Shown here piece after piece: positions 6,429-45,093 of a DNA stretch of 53,640 bases (position 1 is the first letter of the stretch; the number at the start of each line of letters is the position of its first letter). The notes beneath the pieces were generated by a model that was not told where the DNA came from, searched no databases, and worked only from the letters and a program-made list of their open reading frames with translations. Source of the stretch: a virus (Duplodnaviria; Caudoviricetes); IMG/VR virus record IMGVR_UViG_3300037962_000587, positions 1 to 53,640 of that record; one strand, given 5' to 3'. The position numbers were made by a program, and so were the translations under genes.

Positions 6429-7172
6429 CTACTGTCTATCCTTTACTAATTTATAACCCTGCGATACTATATAATTCCAGTATGAGTTGGCCTGCATGTG
6501 ACCTTCAGAAGTTCTGGATGTAGCAGCCATATCTTCCCCATACTTAGAGGGGTCTAAGGAACCCCACATTTCAGGTTCTTCTTTCGGTTGAGGGGGAACG
6601 TAGGTGTATAAACCAAAATGTTTCTGAAGTACGTATGAGAAATGCATGTCCTCACCACCTCTCGTCAGAGGAGTCCTAGGCATTTCAGCCCAATAAGCAC
6701 GTAGCCAATCTCTTTCAAAAAACCAACAATGCCCCATTATGTCTACAGGCTCAGGTTGCTCGTTTCCATATCCAGAGCTGATACTTTCATACGCACAACC
6801 CGGATACATATTATAGTCATCTCCGGTCATTCTGACACCCCTACAACCAAGTAAACCTCTATGAGTTTTAATAGTTTCCAGACAATTCTCTAGCCATCTT
6901 TTTCCGGGGATGGTGTCGTCGTCAAAAACACACACATATTCAGTGCCAGCGTTCAAGGCGTAGGCAAATCTGGCCCAAACACCTAGGTTCTTGTTGCAAA
7001 ATGCTGACGTGCATTTCTCTATCACGTCGCTAGGGAATGATTCCATGGAATCTTCGTGGTAGTTACCCCAGAACATGATGTCAACATCGTCTATTGTCTG
7101 TGATTTGATTGCCTCATACTGCTCAGGTAGGGTGTGAGGTCTTTTATATCCATTGAGAATTGCTGTAATCAT
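6429..7172 (-). CDS. GT-A fold glycosyltransferase (GT2/GT64-like)
   Basis: ILNGYKRP, YVCVFDDD and GGEDMHFSY motifs. Confidence 0.75.
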   Translation of the reverse strand: MITAILNGYKRPHTLPEQYEAIKSQTIDDVDIMFWGNYHEDSMESFPSDVIEKCTSAFCNKNLGVWARFAYALNAGTEYVCVFDDDTIPGKRWLENCLETIKTHRGLLGCRGVRMTGDDYNMYPGCAYESISSGYGNEQPEPVDIMGHCWFFERDWLRAYWAEMPRTPLTRGGEDMHFSYVLQKHFGLYTYVPPQPKEEPEMWGSLDPSKYGEDMAATSRTSEGHMQANSYWNYIVSQGYKLVKDRQ

Positions 7173-8095
7173 TTTGAGATGTTTCCAATGAGTTGTTTGG
7201 TTTGCGATTCGAGATCAGGCATGTTGATCTTAGAAAATATTCTAGCCAGTCTGTTGAGACATGTGTGTCTTTCTAGTACAGTGTCCTTAACCCTGTCAAA
7301 ATTACTATCGTCTTCAGCTATTTCCTTTTGGGTTCCGCAGACAAATCTGCCCACCTTTAAGACACCATCTAAAACGTCCTTCATCTTGTCTGTCTGAGCA
7401 TCATACTTACAATGATAGTATGTCTTGTTTCCGTATATCGTGGCATCAAAAAAGGCTTGCGGTATATAAGGATCTTCAACTGATACTACAAATTTGTTAT
7501 ATTTACCATAAAGCTCGTACATATCAAAGGCAGACATGTGTATATCCGAACCCTCTAGGGGTTGCGGGTTTTGTGTCAGGTAGTGGTATGTTTCCGCAGA
7601 AGACAGTAGCTCGTCCAATCTGTCGTCACTTTTGTAGTCTGTTAACAGGCCTAGCTCTATTTGGTATTCGGGAAACCTTCTACCCCTTCTACCAGAAAAC
7701 AAGTCAGCGCCGTGCATGACACTGATAAGCTTGATCCCTTTAGAGGATAACCTGTTGAGTCTCTTGGGCTGATTGGTAAACAGTAGCGGGCAGTTTATTT
7801 TGGTTTCTTTAACAACGTGGTTTATCAGGTCAACTGTTTCTTGGGAAGAACCTGTCACGTTAACGATTAATTTTATCCTCTGATTTCTACGTAAGTACTT
7901 AAGCGTGTCGTCGTTTAGGAGAGTTATATGCGTAATAAAGATGTCAGGCTTTACGATATCAAACATATCAAAGACGCTGACATTAGTGTCGCTCCAGAAA
8001 GCAGACTCTACACCATTGAGGCAGTTAAGTGATTCGTGCAGGTATGCTGCTTCTGTGCTGGTGCTAGTCGTGTAGTTTTGTACTAGTGCCTTCAT
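7169..8095 (-). CDS. Divergent GT-B/CgeB-like protein
   Basis: KPDIFI N-terminal segment, FFDA and C-terminal RHTCLNRLARIF resemble the CgeB/GT1_2 tail; weak similarity. Confidence 0.4.
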   Translation of the reverse strand: MKALVQNYTTSTSTEAAYLHESLNCLNGVESAFWSDTNVSVFDMFDIVKPDIFITHITLLNDDTLKYLRRNQRIKLIVNVTGSSQETVDLINHVVKETKINCPLLFTNQPKRLNRLSSKGIKLISVMHGADLFSGRRGRRFPEYQIELGLLTDYKSDDRLDELLSSAETYHYLTQNPQPLEGSDIHMSAFDMYELYGKYNKFVVSVEDPYIPQAFFDATIYGNKTYYHCKYDAQTDKMKDVLDGVLKVGRFVCGTQKEIAEDDSNFDRVKDTVLERHTCLNRLARIFSKINMPDLESQTKQLIGNISK

Positions 8096-8831
8096 AGTAT
8101 CTCCGTATCATGTGGTATGTTTTTATGTTATTGACATTTATAAGTTGTTTTGCGGTGTATGGGACAACTGATATTTCAACACTACGTATAAATCTATTTA
8201 ATCCCTCGAAAAGGAACCTGTTCTTGAAGTCAATTAAAGATATAATCTCTCTCAATGTCTCTATAGCTTTTACTGAGTTTAGATAAAGCATCTCTGACCA
8301 AACATTGTTTATCCCGTATGAAAAATTTTGTATCAACCCTTTGTTGTCAGCAGTAAACCCAACGTCTAAGTTTCTAGACCCCTCTAAAGCCGACACTATA
8401 TGTGTGTGTGATGGGTCTATTGATGACAAGATCTCAGGGTCTAGCATAAGTGAGCCGTTGGAAACTAGAACCTTACTGTTGTTGATGTTATTAAGGCAAA
8501 GCCTCAGACTCTCGCAACAGTTTGAGTGTTGGTATATCTGATTTTCAACCACCCTAATTCTGGTGTCAGGGTAATTCTTTCTTATATGCTTTATAACCTT
8601 CTCGGAGTCAAACCCGCAACAAACCACCACCTCGAAGTTGGAGAATACTGATTTGATTGCAGATATCTGCATGTCTATCAAACACTGCCCGCCCATCTTC
8701 AGTAGAGGGGTTGGCCCGTATGACTTCATGCGGTACCCAGACTTTTCAGAAAGGAGTACCACACTAACAAGCTCGTCCATTCTTCTCTGAGGAGTACTCG
8801 GAGAGGTTATGAAAGTGCTTTTTCTTCGCAT
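8064..8831 (-). CDS. Sugar/choline-phosphate nucleotidyltransferase family protein (divergent signature)
   Basis: VVLLSEKSGYRMKSYGPTPLL (cf. LAAGxGxRMKSxxPKxL), VCCGF, VENxxYxxSN and ESLRL. Confidence 0.7.
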   Translation of the reverse strand: MRRKSTFITSPSTPQRRMDELVSVVLLSEKSGYRMKSYGPTPLLKMGGQCLIDMQISAIKSVFSNFEVVVCCGFDSEKVIKHIRKNYPDTRIRVVENQIYQHSNCCESLRLCLNNINNSKVLVSNGSLMLDPEILSSIDPSHTHIVSALEGSRNLDVGFTADNKGLIQNFSYGINNVWSEMLYLNSVKAIETLREIISLIDFKNRFLFEGLNRFIRSVEISVVPYTAKQLINVNNIKTYHMIRRYYEGTSTKLHD

Positions 8832-8837
8832 AGAAAT

Positions 8838-9830
8838 CTAGCCTAGCCACCTATTGTTTTCTAGTGTCCACCGTATAGTCTTCTCTAAACTATCCTCAAA
8901 GTTAATAGGAAGAGACCATCCCAAGGACTCCATCTTTCCACCATCCAAAGCGTATCTGAGGTCATGTCCGGGTCGGCTGCTGTGAAAGTCTAACAGTTCA
9001 TAGTTCAGCGGCTTACCAACAACACCCGCTATAAATTGAGCCATCTGCAAGTTGTCAACTTCTTTTTCTCCTACTATATTATACTTCTCTCTCTGCTCCC
9101 ATTTTCCTTGCATTAAGAATAGTACTGCCGCCGAGGTATTTCTAGCATGTATATAATGCCTTCTGCCGGGTTGACCCTCTGGGCTGGCATGGATATAAAC
9201 CTTTTCTCCGGTTAGCGCCCTATTAACACACATTGGGATGAACTTTTCAGGATGTTGACGTTCCCCAAAGACGTTCATACAGTGGGTTATGACTAGCGGA
9301 AGTTTGTAGGTATTGGCAAACGCCAAACACATCTCCTCCGCCCCAGCCTTTGAGCCTGAGTATGGATTAGTCGAATCATACCGATCCCACTCTTTATACT
9401 TAACCCCTTCAGGAGCGGGGCCAAACACCTCATCAGTGGAAAAGTTCACAAACAGCTCCAACGAGTCCAGTGATCTTGCATAATTTAGCAGGTTAGTGGT
9501 TCCCACTACGTTGTCCATAACAAAAGACATTGGGTCTTCGATACTTCTATCTACGTGTGAGCCAGCAGCTAGGTGCAGGATGTAGTCAACACGCCCTATC
9601 TGAGAAGCTGTAAATGAATTTATTTCAGCCTTAAGATCGTGAAAGACAAAGCTTACTCGGGATTTCCAGTGGTTATGAGACTCTAAGACTTCGTGTAATC
9701 TGTGAAGAGTACCGGAGCAGTCCAGCCTATCCATGCACACAATTTCCCAATCAGTCTCTTTTAGTATATGTTCACAAAGGTGGTGTCCTATAAAGCCAGA
9801 ACCACCGGTCATCAGTACTTTTTTAACCAA
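8838..9830 (-). CDS. rmlB: dTDP-glucose 4,6-dehydratase-like NAD-dependent epimerase/dehydratase
   Basis: TGGSGFIG, HLAAGSHVDRSI, STDEVFG, YSGSK, GERQHPEKFIP and RPGHDLRY motifs; probable TTG start at 9830 after AAGGAG. Confidence 0.88.
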   Translation of the reverse strand: MVKKVLMTGGSGFIGHHLCEHILKETDWEIVCMDRLDCSGTLHRLHEVLESHNHWKSRVSFVFHDLKAEINSFTASQIGRVDYILHLAAGSHVDRSIEDPMSFVMDNVVGTTNLLNYARSLDSLELFVNFSTDEVFGPAPEGVKYKEWDRYDSTNPYSGSKAGAEEMCLAFANTYKLPLVITHCMNVFGERQHPEKFIPMCVNRALTGEKVYIHASPEGQPGRRHYIHARNTSAAVLFLMQGKWEQREKYNIVGEKEVDNLQMAQFIAGVVGKPLNYELLDFHSSRPGHDLRYALDGGKMESLGWSLPINFEDSLEKTIRWTLENNRWLG

Positions 9831-10587
9831 AACTTTTCTCCTTATAAAGGTCGAGCTTTTCAGCTTCTTCTTCCATTTCTTTCTCGAATTCTTTGTACTC
9901 TCCAATATGATTACCGTAGTTCATGAGGAAGGCGTATGATGAGATAAAGCCTATCTCATTAAGCCTGAAGAATACCACTTTGTCCATGTCTTCATTTAGA
10001 ACCTTATCAATGTACGGCAACATGCCTTCGTGTAAAGTGCTTTTAATCGAAAGAAAACTATAATAGCTAAAATTCTTTTCACATTTCTTAAAGACATCAT
10101 ACTCTCTCATGCTGCTTGCTATATTAAATACCACTTGAGCCTTGATTCCCAAATTCTTAATATCGCAAAGAAGTTTAGTGCCCAGCTTTCTCTGCTCCTT
10201 GGTAGCCTCAAACGGCTGAGACAAAACTATGGAAAGTTTATCGTTAGGGTAGTCTATGTTCTTCATTGTGTTGAAGAAATTATTAAAGTCCCCCTCTGTT
10301 GCATCATCAAGCTCCACAGAAATAAAAATCGAGGGTTTGATTGAGTCCCTAGCCTTTGCCACTTCAGAGTCTTCGGTGCTATGTTCTGTAGGCCTAGCGA
10401 GATTACACAGCCTCTTTACGACAAAGAACTCCTTCTCCTCGTCGTATGCCTCGAAGAGTTCCCCCCTCTCAAGGAACTTTTCAGTCCTACCAAACTTACA
10501 TCCTGTCTGTGTATTGCCTTCGTAGATTGCGAAAGCACACCCTTTACAGCTAGTTTGAAGGCGCTTCTCTTTTTGCTTCGACTTCAT
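9823..10587 (-). CDS. Hypothetical protein: N-terminal Cys motif (CKGC...GC...C) plus degenerate GT-A-like region
   Basis: ORF coupled to both neighbours; IDYPNDKLSIVL resembles the GT2 'LDYPxxxxEV' segment. Confidence 0.4.
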   Translation of the reverse strand: MKSKQKEKRLQTSCKGCAFAIYEGNTQTGCKFGRTEKFLERGELFEAYDEEKEFFVVKRLCNLARPTEHSTEDSEVAKARDSIKPSIFISVELDDATEGDFNNFFNTMKNIDYPNDKLSIVLSQPFEATKEQRKLGTKLLCDIKNLGIKAQVVFNIASSMREYDVFKKCEKNFSYYSFLSIKSTLHEGMLPYIDKVLNEDMDKVVFFRLNEIGFISSYAFLMNYGNHIGEYKEFEKEMEEEAEKLDLYKEKSFG

Positions 10588-18039: not shown

Positions 18040-19632
18040 TTAAATTTCATATATTTTATCAACAATAAAAGAATTGTCGTTTCTTGCTACGGACCCGCAT
18101 AGCACTAGATTGTTGCCTTCATATAATATATACTTATGTTTATCTCTGGTGTCTGGAAATGCTATTACGCTGTCGAGTGAGCATGTGTCATCCTCTACCG
18201 TGAGAAACGCCATTTGCCTACCCTTTGAGTCACCTTTAGTTATACGGTAATCTGAAACCCTCTTGACGTGTACGCATATGCATAGGCCCGATCCAGTCTT
18301 GCCATTAACTATTTCCTTACACGTTGTGTTAGCTGCTGACGTGTCCGAACTCTCCACCTTAGACATACTTATGGGGCATCCAAGTAGTTTAGTTTCTTGG
18401 TCAATGACCCAGCCCGGATCGTCGTTTAGGTCGTAAGGAGGATTTTGCAGTAAGCTTAACTCATTGAGTATGAGTTGGCTTCTGTCTACACGATGTGTGC
18501 CGCCACCTTCCTTTTTTAAGGGTGCCAGATCTTTAAGGCAGTCTTCTAGAGTCTTCCATCTTTTCTTTGGGTAGTTCTCAACAACCCATTTGACTTCTGC
18601 CTTCGTCAGGGTTCTGTATATATTGTATTGATACAGAGCTTGGTTTCTGGTAATCTTATCGCTGAATCCTCTGAAGAATCCTACTGAGCAGAGGGCTTTG
18701 AATGCTGTAGAGTTTACAGTTGGCGAGAAATGTACAAGTATCTCCATCCAGCTCAAGTCTTTTAGCGGTTTTCCTAGATTGTCTTTCAGTGCCTGTACCG
18801 CCACAAGCACCTTGTCTCCAGTCTTTCCTGCGAGTGACTTGATATCTTTGATACCAAAGTAGATTTTACCATTTCTTATGTTGAATTTCTCAGCAAAGTT
18901 GGTGATGTTCGGAGCTTTGGTCTCTAGGTCAAATAGCTTGGCTTCGGATACAAGTTCGTATATCTCTTCATGCGGGTTCTGCTTCTCGTTGGCATAGTAC
19001 ATGTAGGATAGGAAGAACTCACTGGTGTTTGTGGCCTTGTAATATGCGCTCCAGTAAGAACACATTGCATAAGCAACAGCGTGTGACTTATTAAAAGAGT
19101 ATCTGGAGGACTTCTCAATCCAACTAAAGATTTCCTCAGCGACTTCGCTGGTAACTAACCCTTTACTTTCAGCGCCCTCTAGGAAAGACTTCTTTACTTG
19201 AGCCATGAGGCCAGCCTTCTTTTTACCGATAGCTTTTCGTAGAACATCTGCCTCTTGCAGATTGAAGCCAGCAATTTTCTGGGCTATACGCATGGATTGT
19301 TCTTGGTATACAAGCACTCCATAGGTTGGCTTAAGTATTTCCTCAAGAGACTCATCTAAATAAGTTACCTCTTCTATACCCCTCTTGCGATCAATGTACC
19401 TCTGGGTCATAGACTTACCGTCCTGAATAGCCTTTAAGCATCCGGGTCGGATGAGGGCTATCAATGCTGCTAGCTCCTCTATGTTTGTGGGCTTAAGCTT
19501 CTTCGACCAAGATCTACCTAGATTGCTCTCAAGCTGGAAAATTCCTTTTGTCTTTCCCTCACTAAAGAGACTCCAAGTTTCTGGAGAGTTATAGTCTATC
19601 CCAGCTCTTTCTTTAGATATAAGAGTTTCCAT
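18040..19632 (-). CDS. dnaE: DNA polymerase III alpha subunit, C-terminal half (fingers, HhH, OB)
   Basis: GIFQLES, ALIRPG, TYGVLVYQEQ, ADVLRKAIGKKK, YSFNKSHAVAY and MAFLTVED motifs; ATG at 19632 (or TTG 19638). Confidence 0.92.
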   Translation of the reverse strand: METLISKERAGIDYNSPETWSLFSEGKTKGIFQLESNLGRSWSKKLKPTNIEELAALIALIRPGCLKAIQDGKSMTQRYIDRKRGIEEVTYLDESLEEILKPTYGVLVYQEQSMRIAQKIAGFNLQEADVLRKAIGKKKAGLMAQVKKSFLEGAESKGLVTSEVAEEIFSWIEKSSRYSFNKSHAVAYAMCSYWSAYYKATNTSEFFLSYMYYANEKQNPHEEIYELVSEAKLFDLETKAPNITNFAEKFNIRNGKIYFGIKDIKSLAGKTGDKVLVAVQALKDNLGKPLKDLSWMEILVHFSPTVNSTAFKALCSVGFFRGFSDKITRNQALYQYNIYRTLTKAEVKWVVENYPKKRWKTLEDCLKDLAPLKKEGGGTHRVDRSQLILNELSLLQNPPYDLNDDPGWVIDQETKLLGCPISMSKVESSDTSAANTTCKEIVNGKTGSGLCICVHVKRVSDYRITKGDSKGRQMAFLTVEDDTCSLDSVIAFPDTRDKHKYILYEGNNLVLCGSVARNDNSFIVDKIYEI

Positions 19633-20290
19633 TTGCAAATGCCTTATCTAAGCTCAAATTTTGGTATACCGCTCTATGTGTTTTCATGAATTTAATCATG
19701 ATATTAGCAGTATCCTTAACATCCTGAAGCGCGTCATGCGCATTCTCCTTACTCATCCCCATCCTGTCACGAAGAGAATCCATGCTAATAGATCTGATAG
19801 ATGGGTCTCCCTCAGTCCACATGAATACATTATCCATAACATCTATTTTGAAGATAGGGTTAAACAGCTTTTGCTGACACCTGTCGTTATCATAAGGTCC
19901 GTACTCTTTACATAACCTGTTGATGATAACCATATCAAACCCAATGATATTAAACCCAGCAGGGATTGGGGCAAACCATGAGGTTCCCTTCCAGTTATGC
20001 TGCTCAACAAACTGCACAAACTTCTTCCACACAGACCTTATGGTAGGAGCTTTTTTCAGAGCCTCTCTGGTCTTGCCTGTGATGCGAAGAGCCTCGTCTT
20101 CAACAGGGTCTACCCCCGCTTCAATCGCCTTCTTCTCACTGAGAATTGGTCTAATCTCGCTGTTGAACGTACCCTTTAGGCGCAAGTTCCTGCCGTCTAA
20201 GGCTATGGCGGCTAGCTGGGTTGGTTGGGTTTTGTGTGGGTTTCTAGAACCGGTTTCAAAGTCAAATACAATTATGTCTTTATTAGACAT
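19613..20290 (-). CDS. dnaQ: DEDDh 3'-5' exonuclease (DnaQ/epsilon-like)
   Basis: ExoI VFDFETG, ExoII GFNIIGFD and ExoIII AHDALQDV; AGGAG RBS. Confidence 0.9.
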   Translation of the reverse strand: MSNKDIIVFDFETGSRNPHKTQPTQLAAIALDGRNLRLKGTFNSEIRPILSEKKAIEAGVDPVEDEALRITGKTREALKKAPTIRSVWKKFVQFVEQHNWKGTSWFAPIPAGFNIIGFDMVIINRLCKEYGPYDNDRCQQKLFNPIFKIDVMDNVFMWTEGDPSIRSISMDSLRDRMGMSKENAHDALQDVKDTANIMIKFMKTHRAVYQNLSLDKAFANGNSYI

Positions 20291-20316: not shown

Positions 20317-21960
20317 TTAGGTTTGGTTTATGAGATCCTTAACTTTCATGATCTTATCGAGAAGGTTGATACCAAGAACGTCGAATTTAACGTGGCCCAA
20401 GCTTTCTAGATCAGACATTTCCAGACCCGCTAATTTTTCATCCTTGTTCCTTTGTTTAACCATGGGGCATACCAACTTAAGCTTGTCTCTGGAAATAACT
20501 ACGCCTGCTGGATGCTTACCCTGCGACTTGAAGGTTCCCTCCATTCTGATTGCTTGGTCAAAGAACTCTGCATAGTCTCCATCTAGGTCTCCGTTGTCGT
20601 TTATGAAACAGAAATCTCTGAGTTCTTCTGGGTTGTTGATTAGTGCCCAACGAATGATAGATCTATCTTCTTCATCCATCTCTTGCAGTTGGTCTGAGAT
20701 GTCTGCCTCGTTGGGGAGGCTCTTGGTGATCTCGTTCATCTCTCCAAATGAGCATGCCTCGTTTATTCTAAGAACTTCCTTCAGCGCGCTACGCCCCTGT
20801 AGTCTTCCAAAGGTAATCATTTGACTAACATTCTCATGTCCGTACTTGTCTTTTAGGTAATCTATGATTTCGTCTCTCTTCTTTCCGGGTACGTCTATGT
20901 CAATGTCGGGAAGCGAGATATGACCTTCTGTATTTCTTCCGCTGTTGTAGAACCTTTCAAATAGAAGATCGTATTCGATGGGATCAATCTTAGTGATCCC
21001 CATTAGATAAGATATTAGACATCCGGCTGCTGACCCTCTACCCGGACCAGAAAGCCATCCCTCGCTGTTTACGAAGCGTATTATATCCCACACAATAAGA
21101 AAGTATCCGAAGAGGTTGGCATCTTTAATGACACCTAGTTCTTCACGAAACCTTTCAGCGTAGTGAGCTTCGGATTCCTCAGAGTCTAACTTGCCAGAGT
21201 CAAGCAAGTCCCGTTTCCAACCCTCTCGGCAAAGACTCTTCAGTAGATCTTCCTCGGTTTCGCCTGTAGGTATTGGAAACTCCGGCAGCATAGGTTTACT
21301 GAGTATATCATACTCTTCACATTTCTCAACTATTTCTATGACGGAATTTATCTGTTCATCTGAACATTCGTCTAATAGTATTTCTGTCACCTCACGTCTA
21401 TCCGGCAAGTGAAAAGTTTCATGACCGAAGAACTTCTCGAATGCTGGGTCGAAATCGCCAGACTTCAGGCTTTTCTTCGCCTTTGGGAGGGTTGTCTTCA
21501 GGTGTGAACACAGTAGCACTCTATGCAGAGGAGCATCCCCTTTGTCGCAGTAGTAAGTTGGACTTAGTGCTGGGGATGTAACATAGGAGTCTTTGCCTAG
21601 AATGGGGTAATACTTATCCGCTATGCAGATAAGATTTCCCTCTTGAAAGACTTTGTAAGAAAGCTCTGATGGGATGTTGCCATCTTCATCAAGCAGTGAC
21701 ACTATCTCGATTAAGTTCAGCCAGCCGTCTTTATTCTTGGCAATCAATGTATAGTTGTCAAAGGAACAACCAATAATCGGCTTGATATTGTGCTTCTTGC
21801 AGGCCTGATAGAAAGACACTGCTCCTGAGATAGATTTATAATCGGCTATACCGCAAGCCTTGTACCCGTTTTCTGAGCACTTCTTTGCGAGCTGTTCTGG
21901 TTTAGAGAAACCTTTTAGTAAACTATAATGCGTATAGTTATGAATGGGGGACCATTCCAT
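20317..21960 (-). CDS. dnaE: DNA polymerase III alpha subunit, N-terminal half (degenerate PHP, palm, thumb)
   Basis: YSLLxG, IKPIIG, GPGRGSAAG, LLFERF, PDIDID, HPAGVVIS and KFDVLG motifs; ATG 21960 (or TTG 21981). Confidence 0.92.
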   Translation of the reverse strand: MEWSPIHNYTHYSLLKGFSKPEQLAKKCSENGYKACGIADYKSISGAVSFYQACKKHNIKPIIGCSFDNYTLIAKNKDGWLNLIEIVSLLDEDGNIPSELSYKVFQEGNLICIADKYYPILGKDSYVTSPALSPTYYCDKGDAPLHRVLLCSHLKTTLPKAKKSLKSGDFDPAFEKFFGHETFHLPDRREVTEILLDECSDEQINSVIEIVEKCEEYDILSKPMLPEFPIPTGETEEDLLKSLCREGWKRDLLDSGKLDSEESEAHYAERFREELGVIKDANLFGYFLIVWDIIRFVNSEGWLSGPGRGSAAGCLISYLMGITKIDPIEYDLLFERFYNSGRNTEGHISLPDIDIDVPGKKRDEIIDYLKDKYGHENVSQMITFGRLQGRSALKEVLRINEACSFGEMNEITKSLPNEADISDQLQEMDEEDRSIIRWALINNPEELRDFCFINDNGDLDGDYAEFFDQAIRMEGTFKSQGKHPAGVVISRDKLKLVCPMVKQRNKDEKLAGLEMSDLESLGHVKFDVLGINLLDKIMKVKDLINQT

Positions 21961-22000
21961 TTGCAACTTTTCCTTTTTCAAATCATTTTGTCCTCACTCT

Positions 22001-38056: not shown

Positions 38057-40258
38057 TTACACTAGTTCACATTGACCGCCAGAACAAGCCCACTCCTGCT
38101 CCGGTTTAACATTGTTTTCTTCCTCTATGACTTGAGTATAGTCAACATCTTGGTATTCCCTATTTAGGTCAACCCACTCTTTCCAGTTGTATACGTCCTT
38201 CATACAGTAGGTTAGCTGTCTAAGATCTCCTTCAAAATACTTATCGGCAAACTTCTTACATCTATCAGACCACTCTTTCTTTCCGTTACCTTTTATTTTC
38301 GCTCCCACTCCTAGAAGTGAGTCGCAAGCGGCCCATAAGTTGTCCTCCCACAGGTTTAAGGCTACCTCTATAAGACCGCTTACAAATAGAGACGCATCAC
38401 CATAATGCCTTACCTGCTCCGTTGGTAGGTAAATTGCCGTGAACGGGGCTTGTGGGTAATCTTTATCTCCCGTGATTGGCAGGAGTGAAATTCCACAGAA
38501 AAACTTTCTATTCTTGTAGATAAACTTCTCAACCTCGTCCCACTCGTCTGGCTTGATATTTATCGTGTTGGAAACATTGTGTACCAGCCAAGGCTGCGTG
38601 CAAAGAGACTTGTTGGTTCCTGTAATTACCCAGTTTTGCTGGGTACTCTTAACATCAGACAGAAGGTCGATTGCCCCCATCTGGTTTTTTGTCTTTGCTC
38701 CCGCAGGAACCTCGATACAGAAAGCAACTACATCGTCGCTATCATTGTTTGACCAGACAGATTCTTCACATGCCCTCGGATTTATTTCTCTGAAGTAGTT
38801 GTAAATTGGTTCCATCTTGTTGGCCTGCACTCTTCTTATGTAACGCTTAGCGTGGTGAGGGTGTATGCCAGATGAAGTTCCCAGAACACAGCTACTGGTA
38901 CCTTCAGGTTTAATGCAGGTGGTTCTAGCTGCTTGATTAATGCCTATAATTTTAGCAATTCTTTTGTTCTCTGACTTGACCACCTTGGCACCCGACCTCT
39001 GTGTTTCTGGGTCTAGACATATTTCATGGTTCTCCATTATGCCGGTCATGGAGACCCCCAAGAGGGCTTCTCTGGATACGATACGTTCACTTGCTTCACC
39101 TAAATACGCGAAGCTGGCAAAACCGGCTTGAAGCGTACCTATAATCGAAGCGGCCTTGCACGCATCATAGAAGTCTTCTTCAGTCTTAACCTTGGCGCAG
39201 TTAATGGTACTTAGATTGCACGCTTGCCAACCACTCTCTCCTGTAGTCTCATCTACTGGCCACATTCCAATCTCCACGCAGGGATTGACTATTAGCTCTG
39301 TGGAGTCAGACCAAACAAAGCCCGGCTCACCAAATTCTTGTACAGATTTCATAAGCTCCGCAAACTGTTGGGCTGTAGTCTTATCTCGCAGCAATAAGGC
39401 TGAATTGTTAGACCTTCCTCTTTGAGGGTTCTCTACAAACCAAGAGCCAGTCTTAGCCTTTGCCATTTCGTCATCATCTGGGCTAAATAAACAGATGGTA
39501 GCACTTCTTCGCACACCACCTGAAATAACAGCGTCTGCACTGTGCATCACTATATCATATGCCTGAATAGGACTTAGCTTCCTTGTACCCTTTGACGCAA
39601 ACTCCATATCCTTGAGGGCTTTGTCTAGTATTTTTCTTATGTTTGATAAAGCGTTCTTTAGTGGTTCTGGGCCGGGAGCCTTGCCTCCGCTTGATCTTAG
39701 ATATGAACCAGCAGGGCGTATCTGAGAGTAATCAAAATTTACATTCTTGCCAACATACTCAGGGAATAATTCGCTTTGATCGAAATAGCTTGCCACTAAT
39801 ATTCCAACAGCATCCGACCACCCCTCTATGGTGTCGGGAATGACGTACTTTTTTGTTCCGTTCTTGTTTCTTACGAGAGGGGGTAGCTTACTTATGTGGT
39901 GCTTCTGCACAGAGAAGCCTGTTCCACAGCCGCAAAGCAGCAGGTACATACATTCTTGAAAGAATCTGAGACGGTCACAGAAAGATGTAATGCAATTGTA
40001 TATCCTTGCGTTATGTTTAAAGATTGGTTTGCCTCCAAACTGCAAGGCTCTCTGTGACCCTAAGACTTTTTTCTTACGCATCATTTCGTATGCCCACTCT
40101 ATATCCTCATGCACCTCTGGGATATCGTAGTACTTATTTAACATCATCTCTTTAACTCGGCTAACTGCCTCGTTCCAAGTTTCCCTCCTCTTCTTTTCTG
40201 GTATCCATCTAGCGTATTTAGAAACAAAGCTGTAGCTCATCAAAGATTTTATAGACAT
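38057..40258 (-). CDS. nrdJ: Class II (adenosylcobalamin-dependent) ribonucleotide reductase, monomeric RTPR type
   Basis: RRETW, YNC, GGVRRSA, NPCVEI, CNL, TCIKPEGT and C-terminal ACSGGQCEL; no nrdB in the window. Confidence 0.9.
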   Translation of the reverse strand: MSIKSLMSYSFVSKYARWIPEKKRRETWNEAVSRVKEMMLNKYYDIPEVHEDIEWAYEMMRKKKVLGSQRALQFGGKPIFKHNARIYNCITSFCDRLRFFQECMYLLLCGCGTGFSVQKHHISKLPPLVRNKNGTKKYVIPDTIEGWSDAVGILVASYFDQSELFPEYVGKNVNFDYSQIRPAGSYLRSSGGKAPGPEPLKNALSNIRKILDKALKDMEFASKGTRKLSPIQAYDIVMHSADAVISGGVRRSATICLFSPDDDEMAKAKTGSWFVENPQRGRSNNSALLLRDKTTAQQFAELMKSVQEFGEPGFVWSDSTELIVNPCVEIGMWPVDETTGESGWQACNLSTINCAKVKTEEDFYDACKAASIIGTLQAGFASFAYLGEASERIVSREALLGVSMTGIMENHEICLDPETQRSGAKVVKSENKRIAKIIGINQAARTTCIKPEGTSSCVLGTSSGIHPHHAKRYIRRVQANKMEPIYNYFREINPRACEESVWSNNDSDDVVAFCIEVPAGAKTKNQMGAIDLLSDVKSTQQNWVITGTNKSLCTQPWLVHNVSNTINIKPDEWDEVEKFIYKNRKFFCGISLLPITGDKDYPQAPFTAIYLPTEQVRHYGDASLFVSGLIEVALNLWEDNLWAACDSLLGVGAKIKGNGKKEWSDRCKKFADKYFEGDLRQLTYCMKDVYNWKEWVDLNREYQDVDYTQVIEEENNVKPEQEWACSGGQCELV

Positions 40259-41072: not shown

Positions 41073-41477
41073 TTAACGTTTTTTACATTGACACTTTCCA
41101 TAGGCATTTTTGCAATTACAGTATGTAGTTGCTGTATCGCACCGGCACCTATGCTTATCCTCCTCGTCATTATCGTCTTCGTCTTCTTCTGGCTCTTCGT
41201 GATATGGGCATTTGGTTTGATGTCCATCCCCATGCCATATGTACCCAGTACCCTTACATGCACATTTTTCTACATCGGGGTGGGGCTTGGGTGCTATGGG
41301 TTGAGCCTCAGTCTCGTTCACCACGAAGGCTACAAAGCCCTCGTTTCTTTTTTCATCTATATTTATTTTGTTTTCTTTGATATCTGTGATACCGGATGAT
41401 ATTTTACCATATGTAAATAGAAAAATCAAGGCGCATGCGGGCACAAATAGTAAAAAATACTTGGTTTTCTGCATCAT
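41073..41477 (-). CDS. Exported/membrane-anchored Cys-rich protein
   Basis: Signal/TM N-terminus, CACKGTG...GDG...CPYH, an acidic linker and a CRC...CNC...CQC tail. Confidence 0.65.
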   Translation of the reverse strand: MMQKTKYFLLFVPACALIFLFTYGKISSGITDIKENKINIDEKRNEGFVAFVVNETEAQPIAPKPHPDVEKCACKGTGYIWHGDGHQTKCPYHEEPEEDEDDNDEEDKHRCRCDTATTYCNCKNAYGKCQCKKR

Positions 41478-42380
41478 CTATATGATCCTTGTGTTTAGCT
41501 TTCTGGGTTTAAAGCCCTCGTACCCACTAAAAGCCCAGCAGTCACCCTGACTGAGCATACGTTTTTCCACCACATCTGCATCAATCCAGAACGAACCCGT
41601 TGGCTGCTCAAGTCTTTTGGGGCCTGCGTTCCAGCTCCCCCAAGAATTAACGCATAAAACTCCGGGTCTCTTATATCCATCATCAATACCTAATAAACAC
41701 ATCTGGTGTGCCCATTCTCCTTTGGGCTTGGCGAATCCCTCCGAATCTCTTTGGGATGAGAACCCTTGGTTGCTTGCGACTGTTATGGCATACCCATTTG
41801 CTAGTAGGTCTCTCGCCTGCTCGTAGTTATCGACCCTAGATACAGTTTGTATGGGGTGTTGCTTTGATATATCTAGTAGAGTTTTTGGCACTCCGCCAGA
41901 AGGCCTGCCCCAACTTTTAGCTTTAGACCCACTGTAAGTCGTGAGGTCTACATTGCCATACTTACCTCTAGGAATAGCTCCATATTCATTGCAGTACCTA
42001 GCCGCCCATACACCATAAGCTCCATCTCCCCTTAATGTTCCGCCACCTATGATAACTCTACAGCCACCATATATATCCTCAGTTGCTGTTTCAGCTACCC
42101 ACTCCTCAAACTCTTTGTTTATGTGTATATCCACACACTTAGCAGCATCTACTGCATACGCAGCACCCTGTGATACGCAATCTCCTATTGTTTGGATTCT
42201 GTTTGGGAATTTTCCAGCAACTCTCTTGATTATATCATACAGGAGAACGGTCTTGCCTTTGCCGGAATTTTTAATAACACCCCAAGAATCTTGGAAGACT
42301 GGATGGGGCAGGGACTTCATTGCTTCCTCAACACCCTGCTCGTCTCTAACCCAACCTCCTAAGTGAGATAGGTTTTTCAT
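41478..42380 (-). CDS. Papain-like (C1/clan CA) cysteine peptidase
   Basis: QTIGDCVSQG (oxyanion Q, nucleophile C), WAHQM (His) and VNSWG (Asn); start ATG 42380 overlaps the upstream TGA. Confidence 0.85.
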   Translation of the reverse strand: MKNLSHLGGWVRDEQGVEEAMKSLPHPVFQDSWGVIKNSGKGKTVLLYDIIKRVAGKFPNRIQTIGDCVSQGAAYAVDAAKCVDIHINKEFEEWVAETATEDIYGGCRVIIGGGTLRGDGAYGVWAARYCNEYGAIPRGKYGNVDLTTYSGSKAKSWGRPSGGVPKTLLDISKQHPIQTVSRVDNYEQARDLLANGYAITVASNQGFSSQRDSEGFAKPKGEWAHQMCLLGIDDGYKRPGVLCVNSWGSWNAGPKRLEQPTGSFWIDADVVEKRMLSQGDCWAFSGYEGFKPRKLNTRII

Positions 42381-42895
42381 AGCTTTACAGCTCCAGATAG
42401 GGACTCGAATATACCTTGAAACCAATCTCGATCCTGTTGGCTATCGAGTTTTCTGGGTTCATCATATCCAGCCGCCACTAGATAACTAGAAATAGCGTCT
42501 GTAAATTCGGGGTACCGCTCACGATTCCAACCATAAGAAGTCTGAACCCTAGCTAGTATTGGATCAAACTGTGAGGTATTGTTTAGATTCTTTGCGTGCT
42601 TTAGATATTCAGCGGCACCTGATAGAAGTTTATATATTAGAATTCTGTCATCTTCGTTTTCTATTTTGTTGAATTCGCTCTCAACAAAAGCTAGAGATTC
42701 AGCGACTTCATCCACCTCGACTTCAGCCTCTTCTTCACCACTGTCTCCCCCTGTGTTAACAACTTGGTCAACACTAGGGGGTGAAAGCGGTGGATGGGTG
42801 AACTCTGATACTTTCAGCGTTCCCAATACCAAAACCAAAGCCCAAGGGATCAAAGCAGCTAAACTTACCTTTGTATCCGATAGTTTAGCCATCAT
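42377..42895 (-). CDS. N-terminally membrane-anchored helical protein
   Basis: TM SLAALIPWALVLVLGTL, a Pro/acidic linker, then a helical domain. Confidence 0.6.
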   Translation of the reverse strand: MMAKLSDTKVSLAALIPWALVLVLGTLKVSEFTHPPLSPPSVDQVVNTGGDSGEEEAEVEVDEVAESLAFVESEFNKIENEDDRILIYKLLSGAAEYLKHAKNLNNTSQFDPILARVQTSYGWNRERYPEFTDAISSYLVAAGYDEPRKLDSQQDRDWFQGIFESLSGAVKL

Positions 42896-42916: not shown

Positions 42917-43150
42917 TTATGCAGGCGTATCCGGCTGGTCTACAACATGGTTGTTTTTAGCCCATTTAACAGCAGCATCTAAGAGAATGCTAACGATTGG
43001 AACTACAACCATACTGGAAGCCCCAAGATCAAGTGAGGATAAGTTTCCTCCGATGTAGGTGAGACCTGCGGCTAGTCCAACTAGTAAACCGTTGATACCA
43101 ACACGTCTGAGGTCGCCCAAGTTTAAACTAAAAGCTTTTGATGGTTCCAT
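42917..43150 (-). CDS. Putative holin (2 TM, 77 aa)
   Basis: Two hydrophobic segments and a short charged C-tail (KWAKNN); start ATG 43150; context. Confidence 0.6.
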   Translation of the reverse strand: MEPSKAFSLNLGDLRRVGINGLLVGLAAGLTYIGGNLSSLDLGASSMVVVPIVSILLDAAVKWAKNNHVVDQPDTPA

Positions 43151-43154
43151 TGAC

Positions 43155-43739
43155 TTAACCTTTCTGAGAAATTTCTGACACACTTATTAAGAAACCGCCT
43201 TGTTCGTCCTCGTTGAGTTTGTAGGGAAACCCTACTATTCTCACATCCATATCATCTGATGTTTTAGTTTCCTTGTCTAATCTCCTGTTCATACTCAGGC
43301 AAGAATTCAACTCATGTATGAACTCTTCCCTTTCGTCTTCGTGAACATATGTTATCCAGTCTCTACCCTCTAGATTATTTGTAGACTGACCGGTTAATTC
43401 ATTGAAAGATTCATTTGTCCAGACTAACCTTCCTGCATTATCTGTCTCGAAGAGTGCTGTGGAATTGTAGTGCAATGCGGCTTTAGACCTTTGCTCTATT
43501 ATCTTTTGACTTTCTTCTATCCTACCACAAGTGTCTCCAAGTTTGCAGACAACATCCTTCAGGCTTCCACCACCATTCGTGGTTATCTCTTTCTTGATCG
43601 TATCTATAGATTCTGACAAATCTTCGTGTTTGTCTATAAATTTCAAAGTTGGTTTAACTACCTTAAAAAATATCCAAGAAAGAAAACCTCCCGCAAAGCT
43701 CAAGAGTGTTGTTGTTATTACTACGGTATCTGGCTCCAT
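43155..43739 (-). CDS. Membrane protein: TM, DUF2746-like NGGGSLKD coiled segment, PAS domain
   Basis: TM1, EITTNGGGSLKDVV, and PAS signature LFETDNAGRLVWTNESFNELTG...GRDWITYVHEDERE. Confidence 0.75.
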   Translation of the reverse strand: MEPDTVVITTTLLSFAGGFLSWIFFKVVKPTLKFIDKHEDLSESIDTIKKEITTNGGGSLKDVVCKLGDTCGRIEESQKIIEQRSKAALHYNSTALFETDNAGRLVWTNESFNELTGQSTNNLEGRDWITYVHEDEREEFIHELNSCLSMNRRLDKETKTSDDMDVRIVGFPYKLNEDEQGGFLISVSEISQKG

Positions 43740-43754
43740 AACCTACCCCTTCTG

Positions 43755-43790
43755 AAAAAAAACGAGAGTCCTCCCGGAGGAGGAACTCTC
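43755..43790 (-). terminator. Rho-independent terminator
   Basis: Minus strand GAGAGTTCCTCC-TCCG-GGAGGACTCTC-G followed by T8. Confidence 0.85.
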
Positions 43791-43805: not shown

Positions 43806-44555
43806 TTAGTTATTTTCGCCTTCTCTGTGGTCTCTACGTTTGTAATCATCCTGCTTTGGATTCTTGCCACCGAACATGTAAGTGAGTTCGCCGGGAATAC
43901 CAAACTGTGCAGCGCCACTAGGAATAGCAGCATGATCAGTAGAGGCAGATTGGCTAATAGCGTTAGTGAAGTTAGATGCTGCGGTAGGCTCGCCACTAGC
44001 TCCAGAAATAGTTCTACCCGGAACACGGTCAGTACTTGGTACTGCCAACATATTGTATGTCATTGTTCCGTGGTTGTAGACGCTATCTACATTATGAACG
44101 CCATCATAGGTCGTGGTGGAGCTGTGCTCTCTACCGGTGCTATTTAGAAGGCTGGAGCTGTCATTGTTGACTTTTCCAGCTCCGGTAGTTCCCGCAGCTC
44201 GAAGGAGGAAGTTTCTGTCGCCAGCTCTAGCGTCTGGGAAGTAAGCGAGGCCTCCAGTGCCACCACTTTTTGCTTTTACGATACCGTCAGGATTGTCGGT
44301 TTTTTCATCGCCGTTAGCTCGATTGGTGGCCGTTTTTGCTACTACGATAGATCCGTAGTCATAGCTCTTAGCGCCATTAATGTCGTTGACATCAATGTTT
44401 TTTGTGATCTTAGAAGCGTCTCCCATACCGCCGACGTTTCCACCCTTGACCATAGAACCGCCGTCATTTGTTACGGGTGCTCCGTCGTCAGATCCGACTC
44501 TGCCGCTGTTTCCGGTGATGACTCTGAAGTCACCTGATGCTGATTGTGTAGCCAT
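43806..44555 (-). CDS. Gly/Ser/Thr/Asn-rich protein, probable virion structural protein
   Basis: Composition, strong GGGAG RBS, own promoter-like motif and terminator. Confidence 0.5.
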   Translation of the reverse strand: MATQSASGDFRVITGNSGRVGSDDGAPVTNDGGSMVKGGNVGGMGDASKITKNIDVNDINGAKSYDYGSIVVAKTATNRANGDEKTDNPDGIVKAKSGGTGGLAYFPDARAGDRNFLLRAAGTTGAGKVNNDSSSLLNSTGREHSSTTTYDGVHNVDSVYNHGTMTYNMLAVPSTDRVPGRTISGASGEPTAASNFTNAISQSASTDHAAIPSGAAQFGIPGELTYMFGGKNPKQDDYKRRDHREGENN

Positions 44556-44637: not shown

Positions 44638-45093
44638 TTATTCCATACGTTTTGCCAATTGCTGTACGGATTTTTTCACTTTTCTTCGTATTGTTTCTCT
44701 GTTGCAGCCATGCTTCTTGGCTATTTCCTTGATGGTCATGTTGTCCATTCTGTCTAGAATGAGGTCGCTGTTAGAACATTTGTCTATTTCGTCCATCAAT
44801 TCTATGGAAAAAAAGTGATCTGATTCGTCTGGGAGATTGGAATGTAGAGGTTGGTGCTTTCTTTTGTTAAACTTAACCTCTCTTATGCATTCTATCCTAA
44901 CCCCGCTATAGAGGTAAGTTGTAAACTTAGAACCCTTCTTTTCATCCCAATTAGTAAATGCTTTCCAAAGAGCATTCAACTTACAGGTGTGGATCTCGTC
45001 GTCATTAAGTTGACTTCTGAAAGATCCAGCCGCCTTGTTCATTATATTTTGTATATCCTGATTTTGCAAAGCTTCTTCAATTTGTTTATCCAT
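44638..45093 (-). CDS. Minimal sigma-70 family RNA polymerase sigma factor (regions 2 and 4)
   Basis: ALWKAFTNWDEKKGSKFTTYLY (region 2) and MTIKEIAKKHGCNRETIRRK (region 4 HTH). Confidence 0.85.
   Translation of the reverse strand: MDKQIEEALQNQDIQNIMNKAAGSFRSQLNDDEIHTCKLNALWKAFTNWDEKKGSKFTTYLYSGVRIECIREVKFNKRKHQPLHSNLPDESDHFFSIELMDEIDKCSNSDLILDRMDNMTIKEIAKKHGCNRETIRRKVKKSVQQLAKRME

Follow-up and report, generated by a model that had tools for sequence, protein, structure and literature searches.

The window analyzed here is a stretch of 53,640 bases from a viral record (IMGVR_UViG_3300037962_000587) estimated to be 34% complete. All of its long open reading frames (ORFs), and all of the features of the window described below, lie on the minus strand. 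One ORF, at 43155–43739, encodes a 194-residue membrane-anchored PAS protein, which is the subject of this analysis and whose definition draws on the ORF call, a family of homologues and an AlphaFold2 model. The protein begins with a transmembrane helix (approximately residues 6–28; 43656–43724), located by hydropathy and charge counts across 46 family members, and ends with a PAS domain (residues 95–191; 43167–43457), the C-terminus lying 3 residues past the PAS match. Between them is the motif NGGGSLKD (residues 55–62; 43554–43577), placed by alignment and model and contained in the segment EITTNGGGSLKDVV (residues 51–64). In the AlphaFold2 model, computed from the 46 family sequences (mean predicted local distance difference test score 82), a helix comprising residues 3–54 breaks at the NGGG of residues 55–58 and is followed by a second helix (59–90) and a five-stranded PAS fold (95–189). 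This architecture agrees with the first-pass annotation of the DNA, which had read an N-terminal transmembrane segment, a motif-bearing coiled segment and a complete PAS fold at the end of the protein; the coiled segment can now be described as two long helices with the near-invariant NGGxSLKD as the turn between them. That annotation had also noted the lack of a kinase, GGDEF or helix-turn-helix (HTH) output domain, and a Pfam search of the protein matched no such model at E ≤ 1, nor did it match an anti-sigma or DNA-binding domain.

Pfam, AlphaFold2 and Foldseek agree on the PAS assignment. Four Pfam PAS models exceed their curated cut-offs, led by PAS_9 (30.4 bits against a cut-off of 27, residues 95–191, E = 5.1e-7) and followed by PAS (26.9 against 22.6), PAS_3 (25.7 against 25.6) and PAS_4 (25.4 against 23.1), and PAS_9 matches all 46 aligned family members. 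The strands of the modeled domain span residues 95–99, 105–108, 154–160, 165–174 and 180–189, with helices between. Comparison of the model with the PDB by Foldseek gave 422 matches at E ≤ 1e-3, those listed all being of PAS or LOV type, with MmoS (3ewk), a Colwellia PAS domain, a Brucella LOV domain and NifL (2gj3) at the top; the check by PAS_3, PAS_4 and Foldseek that had been proposed at the outset thus returned a PAS domain each time. The structural neighbors bind flavin adenine dinucleotide, flavin mononucleotide or heme, at sequence identities of 13–21%. Many positions lining the pocket are invariant in the 46 sequences (W107, N109, F112, W128, E134, R137, S146, C147, R152 and Y173). 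A search of PDB sequences with the PAS family profile found no solved PAS domain at E ≤ 0.01; flavin binding is not implied, given the low identity, the lack of a LOV cysteine motif and the lack of a solved-PAS sequence match.

The PAS protein is predicted to have a single transmembrane domain (TMD) with an N-out/C-in orientation. The N-terminus ahead of the helix is short and acidic in the family, and in 45 of the 46 members the 15 residues that follow the helix contain more lysine plus arginine than this N-terminus does (mean 3.24 against 0.22). A hydropathy count found a second hydrophobic segment in 0 of the 46. Under the positive-inside rule, this distribution of charge predicts a cytoplasmic linker and PAS domain.

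The protein belongs to a well-conserved family. Of 587 candidates, 261 are homologues at E ≤ 1e-3, and the best 120 of these are 176–255 residues long and 47–97% identical to the window protein, with full-length coverage; the family is uniform, its members being mostly about 190–200 residues. The 46 aligned sequences are approximately 50% identical to one another, and across them N55, G57, S59, K61 and D62 of the motif region are invariant whilst G56 and C71 are conserved in at least 90%. The family occurs in aquatic phages of roughly 130–170 kb, and the contigs that carry the homologues reach 170 kb. A tblastn search with the PAS protein matched none of 50,697 GenBank phage records.

The PAS gene has a constant companion. 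Across 17 viral loci related to the PAS locus, a two-helix membrane protein of 70–77 residues is encoded directly 3' of the PAS gene in all 17, at a gap of 1–16 nucleotides. In the window this two-helix protein has 77 residues (42917–43150) and its ATG lies 4 nucleotides past the PAS stop codon. The two-helix proteins combine two hydrophobic segments with an acidic loop and are basic at both ends; they are predicted to be N-in/C-in, and the search for homologues returned 1096. The Atlas r1t-holin cluster was proposed for the protein at 0.89, below that tool's bar. A 185-nucleotide contig from a metatranscriptome library, 100% identical to the window, bridges the junction of the two genes (43090–43274), and a second contig of 218 nucleotides lies within the peptidase gene described below. 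Such contigs are compatible with transcription, and at the junction with co-transcription, but go no further because these libraries may contain DNA; they cover only three bins each, the uncovered parts being uninformative.

The N-terminal half of the PAS protein is shared with much smaller phage proteins. It matches phrog_1009 (E = 4.5e-4, residues 10–86), as do 25 of the 46 family members, and 16 of the 46 match phrog_9869. A profile of residues 1–87, built from 8 sequences and searched against 1.84 billion representatives, retrieved 191 proteins at E ≤ 1e-3. Among the best 150 of these, 80 carry a PAS domain according to the family hidden Markov model, many of the short ones are truncated copies, and two of more than 200 residues (P0170 and P0239) look PAS-like by eye. 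The first-pass annotation had allowed that the N-terminus might prove to match truncated sensor kinases; this was not borne out, as 148 of these 150 proteins are at most 257 residues long and the other two are artefacts of a repeat motif. From the matches we picked 35 complete stand-alone proteins of about 90–180 residues that consist of a transmembrane helix, NGGxSLKD and a coiled-coil or charged tail. Aligned with the family N-terminus, this group gives an hhalign probability of 99.7% (E = 5.8e-27, 77 columns), and by this comparison of profiles the N-terminal module of the PAS protein is clearly homologous to the stand-alone NGGxSLKD proteins. The 35 match phrog_9869 (31 proteins), phrog_1009 (10), phrog_15431 (5), phrog_404 (5) and phrog_3534 (2). 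Most of the PHROGs matched by the module lack a functional annotation; phrog_15431, which is annotated 'holin', has a best stand-alone E of 1.1e-16. One 134-residue protein (P0122) matches the family N-terminal profile over its first 87 residues at E = 5.4e-33 but ends in a tail that resembles a coiled coil where the PAS domain would follow, which may reflect a natural exchange of domains or an error of assembly.

Scans of viral contigs with two degenerate DNA patterns for the motif indicate how common the module is. The first returned 73 stretches, 71 of them in frame (70 small proteins of 41–115 residues and one PAS fusion), and the second at least 120; of the 79 loci retained from it, 78 have the motif in frame, in 74 cases within a small protein and in 4 within a PAS fusion. 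Over both scans, 144 of 149 in-frame cases are stand-alone and 5 are fused to a PAS domain; this makes the module a small phage protein of very common occurrence, and the PAS fusion its rarer, derived form. The five fusions are divergent (L042, L098, L127, L137 and L149; loci of our comparisons carry the prefix L). At L042, the PAS-fusion gene (7968–8603) is overlapped at its start by an 84-residue ORF (7735–7989) whose product bears a lipoprotein-like signal (LAAC), an arrangement reminiscent of spanin genes. Literature searches found no experimental study of a stand-alone NGGxSLKD protein. In the GenBank phage collection, tblastn with the P0226, P0261 and L105 proteins gave no match and with the L063 protein only two unannotated records, so none of the four led to a cultivated phage with an annotated copy; searches for related loci with the single proteins P0228 and P0225 returned no loci.

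Functional data exist for a family that may be a distant relative of this module. DUF2746 is the LysF1b type of holin-like protein with one TMD, which in the lysis cassettes of mycobacteriophages adjoins a 2-TMD protein (PMC13056207, PMC9339283); Ms6 gp5 is of this type. LysF1b of the cluster F1 mycobacteriophages is described as N-out/C-in with one TMD, and HHpred matches it to PF10874 with high probability; it adjoins LysF1a, an 88-residue 2-TMD protein of N-in/C-in topology (PMC13056207). Proteins like LysF1b have 92–150 residues and a highly charged C-terminal cytoplasmic tail that is needed for complementation, and the predicted structure and topology of LysF1b have been likened to those of Mu releasin (PMC13056207). 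Deleting it severely impairs lysis, and phages left with LysF1b alone can be triggered early by energy poisons (PMC13056207). In phage Waterfoul, gp32 combines a TMD with DUF2746 and is encoded just after a putative holin (PMC9339283). Che8 gp35, our positive control, matches DUF2746 at 49.6 bits (E = 5.8e-13) as well as phrog_404 and phrog_3534; its neighbor gp34 is an r1t-type holin, and gp35 is 98.4% identical to NormanBulbieJr gp33, the gene of the NBJ lysF1b work (PMC13056207). When the stand-alone group was aligned with six DUF2746 proteins, hhalign gave 62.5% (E = 7.3e-5) over 65 columns, colinear from the transmembrane helix through the motif. A phmmer search of the 150 representatives with Che8 gp35 yielded a single marginal match against a very small database and was set aside. 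A distant common origin of the NGGxSLKD module and DUF2746/LysF1b is plausible on these alignments.

In several cases the stand-alone proteins are encoded beside lysin or holin genes. The gene next after the motif gene encodes a CHAP protein at L054 (1.8e-13), a Phage_holin_9 protein at L055 (2.3e-7) and, at L035, a Phage_r1t_holin protein (5.6e-24), to which family the holin next to Che8 gp35 also belongs; at L025 a GH25 plus PG_binding_1 protein (3.3e-39) precedes the motif gene. For a wider count, each motif-protein cluster with flanks of at least 1.5 kb contributed one representative record, 32 in all, drawn from the 48 clusters formed by the 149 loci; the motif gene was located in all 32, and five lysin families were searched in them. 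A lysin-family match lies within 1 kb of the motif gene in 8 of the 32, two of them above the curated cut-off (CHAP at 53.2 bits in G032 and GH25 in G025) and six below it (CHAP in G040, G041 and G026; M15_4 in G018, G014 and G010). Lysins near the motif gene are an enrichment over chance, not a rule. In 23 loci the motif gene adjoins a 161-residue gene whose only matches, to Peptidase_M15_4, are sub-threshold, and which may encode an M15 peptidase, judging by a zinc-site pattern. The presumed lysins of L048 (170 residues) and L061 (149 residues) had no phmmer match in the PDB.

Downstream of the pair, the window encodes a 172-residue protein that is hydrophobic near its N-terminus and also has an acidic stretch (42377–42895; no family match), which is present only in the window and at L002 among the 17 loci. 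It is followed by a 300-residue papain-fold (C1-like) cysteine peptidase (41478–42380) that may be a lytic enzyme. The AlphaFold2 model of the peptidase has a predicted template-modeling score of 0.81, and Foldseek places xylellain and cathepsin B at the head of 186 matches at E ≤ 1e-3. All of 35 sequences share Q63, C68, H225 and N245-S-W-G, and we take Q63, C68, H225 and N245 to be papain's Gln-Cys-His-Asn catalytic set. The protein has no Pfam match, the profile search of PDB sequences gave chance-level matches only, and the Peptidase_C1 model is unmatched in the window and four relatives (one 86% complete). Its 1799 homologues of about 305 residues on large phage contigs mark it as a core gene of this phage group. 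The 172-residue membrane protein intervenes between pair and peptidase in the window and at L002, whilst at L013 and L015–L018 a 305-residue protein comes right after the pair. At L013 and L016 the order is PAS gene, two-helix gene, papain-fold peptidase and then tail-fiber-like proteins of 748–1441 residues, a late-region setting that speaks for a role in lysis. Beyond the peptidase, at 41073–41477, an ORF encodes a 134-residue protein with V-P-A-C in its hydrophobic N-terminus and an acidic, Cys-rich tail; the V-P-A-C may be lipobox-like, in which case the product would be a lipoprotein.

On the other side, a Gly/Ser/Thr-rich 249-residue protein (43806–44555) is encoded directly upstream of the PAS gene, and beyond it lies a sigma-factor-like protein of 151 residues (44638–45093) with weak Sigma70_r4 and Sigma70_r2 matches and with matches to phrog_351 and phrog_1740 at E of about 1e-9. 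The sigma-like gene is upstream in 15 of the 15 loci whose flank extends that far, and the Gly-rich gene is likewise conserved wherever the flank reaches it. A consensus scan placed a terminator-like hairpin with a T-run between the 249-residue gene and the PAS gene (43763–43784); the hairpin is G+C-rich, is followed by eight T and comes directly after the Gly-rich gene, a sequence feature which suggests that this gene ends a strongly expressed unit.

Near the PAS pair the window also holds a class II (B12-type) ribonucleotide reductase (38057–40258), and at L003, L004, L007, L008 and L012 we read, by eye, nrdA/nrdB-like genes immediately after the two-helix gene (at about 6900–10300), which suggests that one reductase type has been replaced by another between the window and its relatives. 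A DnaE-type DNA polymerase III alpha is split into ORFs of 554 (20317–21981) and 532 residues (18040–19638) that match successive parts of one PHROG model, with a 225-residue ORF between them (19613–20290). We rejected a T4-like origin of the phage because of this polymerase, and the GenBank phage collection contains no close cultivated relative. DNA of the window was found in marine and estuary metagenome runs from several studies. One run labeled as a single organism, not a metagenome, contains long contigs of this phage, 99+% alike, on either side of the PAS pair. A 64-kb contig (L217) of a metagenome-assembled genome titled SAR202 cluster bacterium encodes a 100% identical copy of the PAS protein; SAR202 is at most a lead to the host, since the binning of phage contigs is unreliable.

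The reading we favor is that the PAS protein is a LysF1b-like lysis-timing protein that crosses the inner membrane once, has acquired a PAS domain on the cytoplasmic side and acts jointly with the two-helix protein, and we put its probability at roughly 0.45. The PAS protein and the two-helix protein would be made together and act as a holin and a holin regulator. The signaling state or dimerization of the PAS domain would be passed through the rigid helix 59–90 and the NGGxSLKD turn to the membrane helix, and the resulting change in that helix would alter the ease with which the pair oligomerizes and permeabilizes the membrane, such that lysis timing would follow an intracellular cue, for instance redox or energy state or a metabolite. 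In such a scheme the protein would have a lysis role in this phage, would make contact with the two-helix protein, and may bind a ligand, of whatever nature, in its PAS domain. The first-pass annotation had arrived at a holin partner or antiholin; the homology of the module to stand-alone proteins, some of them beside lysins and holins, gives that proposal a footing, whereas no holin family accommodates the two-helix partner and the searches turned up no canonical endolysin family.

Several results weigh against this reading. The tie between DUF2746 and lysis cassettes, on which the first-pass annotation had leaned, is real in mycobacteriophages (PMC13056207, PMC9339283) but does not extend to the PAS protein or its family at the level of Pfam: DUF2746 (PF10874, cut-off 23 bits) is unmatched in the window at E ≤ 10 and in the protein at E ≤ 1, and is absent from the 25 families shown for the 46 family members. 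The family N-terminus, itself a shallow alignment, gives only 0.5% by hhalign against the six-member DUF2746 alignment, and because of this and the unmatched Pfam model we do not regard the PAS protein as a DUF2746 member. The two-helix protein is not recognized as a holin: no holin name occurs among the best 120 of its 1096 homologues, 0 of 9 members match a holin or any other model in Pfam and PHROG, and hhalign gives 0.2% against r1t holins and at most 3.7% against the small membrane neighbors of the stand-alone relatives. Phage_lysozyme, Amidase_2, Peptidase_M15_4, SLT and Peptidase_M23 are unmatched in the window and the same four relatives in which Peptidase_C1 was sought. The enzyme near the pair has a general papain/cathepsin fold, not that of a known cell-wall hydrolase, and adjoins the pair in only 6 of the 17 loci, whilst ribonucleotide reductase genes follow the pair in 11 of the 17. 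Around the stand-alone genes, the five lysin families have no match in 17 of the 32 records and in 7 occur only more than 3 kb away, and four of the divergent PAS fusions have no obvious lysin or two-helix neighbor. Finally, a cofactor signature is not detectable in the PAS domain, nor is a PDB sequence match.

A bolder form of the favored reading is that the fusions represent a widespread, undescribed class of lysis-timing proteins, in which a LysF1b-like module with a PAS domain lets abundant large phages of marine and fresh water gate bursting on the redox, energy, oxygen or light state of the infected cell, and the two-helix protein is the partner that forms or controls the pore. We consider this generalization possible but would not expect it to hold.

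It is also conceivable, though improbable, that the protein belongs to a lysis cassette and senses nothing, the PAS domain being a mere dimerization unit or scaffold in place of a coiled-coil tail and timing being set by expression level. PAS domains commonly dimerize. The unassignable cofactor signature and the lack of a solved PAS sequence at E ≤ 0.01 fit such a role, as do the short coiled-coil tails that the stand-alone relatives carry at the same position and the tail of P0122 where the PAS domain would be. The many invariant positions that line the pocket are, however, more than a pure dimer interface usually needs, and PAS domains have been fused to this module in independent and very divergent cases (80 of the 150 listed representatives; the five fusions named above).

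Equally, the protein could be a membrane-tethered cytoplasmic sensor unrelated to lysis, which might, for example, modulate the sigma-like factor or a signaling or energy pathway of the host, with the two-helix protein as its membrane partner; we judge this rather unlikely. It would account for the conservation of the block of sigma-like, 249-residue, PAS and two-helix genes in all 15 loci that reach the sigma gene, for the nucleotide-metabolism genes after the pair in 11 of the 17 loci, and for the lack of a recognized holin or endolysin in the neighborhood. On the other hand, the terminator-like hairpin parts the PAS gene from the upstream block, the module is common to small proteins that have no sensor and in several cases sit beside lysins and holins, and the PAS protein has no DNA-binding domain; as it has no anti-sigma domain either, an anti-sigma role ranks low.

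Least probable, in our view, is that the NGGxSLKD module, whether fused to a PAS domain or not, serves another envelope function (for example excluding superinfection, acting in a spanin-like step or freeing an enzyme tethered to the membrane), which the PAS version would regulate, for although most matching PHROGs are unannotated, 17 of the 32 stand-alone records lack a match to the searched lysin families and LysF1b has been likened to Mu releasin, the N-out/C-in topology would put nearly the whole protein in the cytoplasm, unlike spanins, and the sole experimental data on a relative, a distant one, indicate a holin-type function (PMC13056207).

Lysis timing sets burst size and is a main life-history trait of phages. 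The known routes by which a signal adjusts it are few, comprising antiholin inhibition of the T4 type and transcriptional switches such as VqmA. A sensor fused to a holin-type membrane module would, if the favored reading is correct, be a new route that leads from an intracellular signal to lysis in one protein. Since the family is abundant (261 PAS and 1096 two-helix homologues) and DNA of the window occurs in marine metagenomes, a confirmed function would bear on the time at which marine hosts are lysed. The analysis also defines the NGGxSLKD single-pass proteins, a very common family of small phage proteins that is almost unannotated.

Closely related to the PAS protein are the stand-alone NGGxSLKD proteins (phrog_9869, phrog_1009 and phrog_15431), which have the same transmembrane helix, linker, motif and following helix, but are single-pass proteins of 41–139 residues with a short coiled-coil tail and no sensor. 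The likeness to LysF1b and LysF1a is one of overall plan, together with a distant profile link by way of the stand-alone proteins. Like LysF1b, the PAS protein carries just one TMD, at its N-terminus, of predicted N-out/C-in topology, a cytoplasmic helical region and the motif N-x(3)-[ST/N]-[LM]-[KR]-D, and both proteins adjoin a 2-TMD, N-in/C-in protein of approximately 77–88 residues. The differences are that the gene order is reversed at the PAS locus, with the 1-TMD gene first; that a PAS domain replaces the charged C-terminal tail, giving 194 residues against 92–150; that no lysin A or lysin B adjoins the PAS pair; that its two-helix partner is not detectably an r1t holin; and that the host of the PAS phage is, as far as can be told, not an actinobacterium. 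For the PAS part alone, the best structural matches are flavin-based redox and light sensors (MmoS 3ewk, NifL 2gj3 and LOV proteins; Foldseek E between 1.5e-6 and 1e-5, with TM-scores by target reaching 0.80), from which it differs in sequence, at 13–21% identity and with no LOV-type cysteine motif seen.

In principle of action, the nearest parallels to the favored reading are T4 lysis inhibition, in which holin T is governed by the antiholins RI (periplasmic) and RIII (cytoplasmic), and the TeaA/ArrA system of ICP1; in both, an accessory protein bound to the holin adjusts its triggering to a signal (PMC11413866, PMC8385771, PMC7182436). Neither system is related to the PAS protein in sequence. 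T4 responds to superinfection, which it senses in the periplasm; the PAS protein would carry a cytoplasmic sensor fused to the membrane protein itself. The literature found on phage PAS domains and on holins or lysis describes no lysis membrane protein to which a PAS domain is fused or with which one is paired. Within the accessible part of that literature, the nearest published case is VqmA of vibriophage VP882, a phage-encoded PAS-HTH receptor that influences the lysis time of the host (PMC8284805). VqmA is a soluble transcription factor that acts in the switch from lysogeny to lysis, whereas the PAS protein has no DNA-binding domain and is anchored in the membrane.

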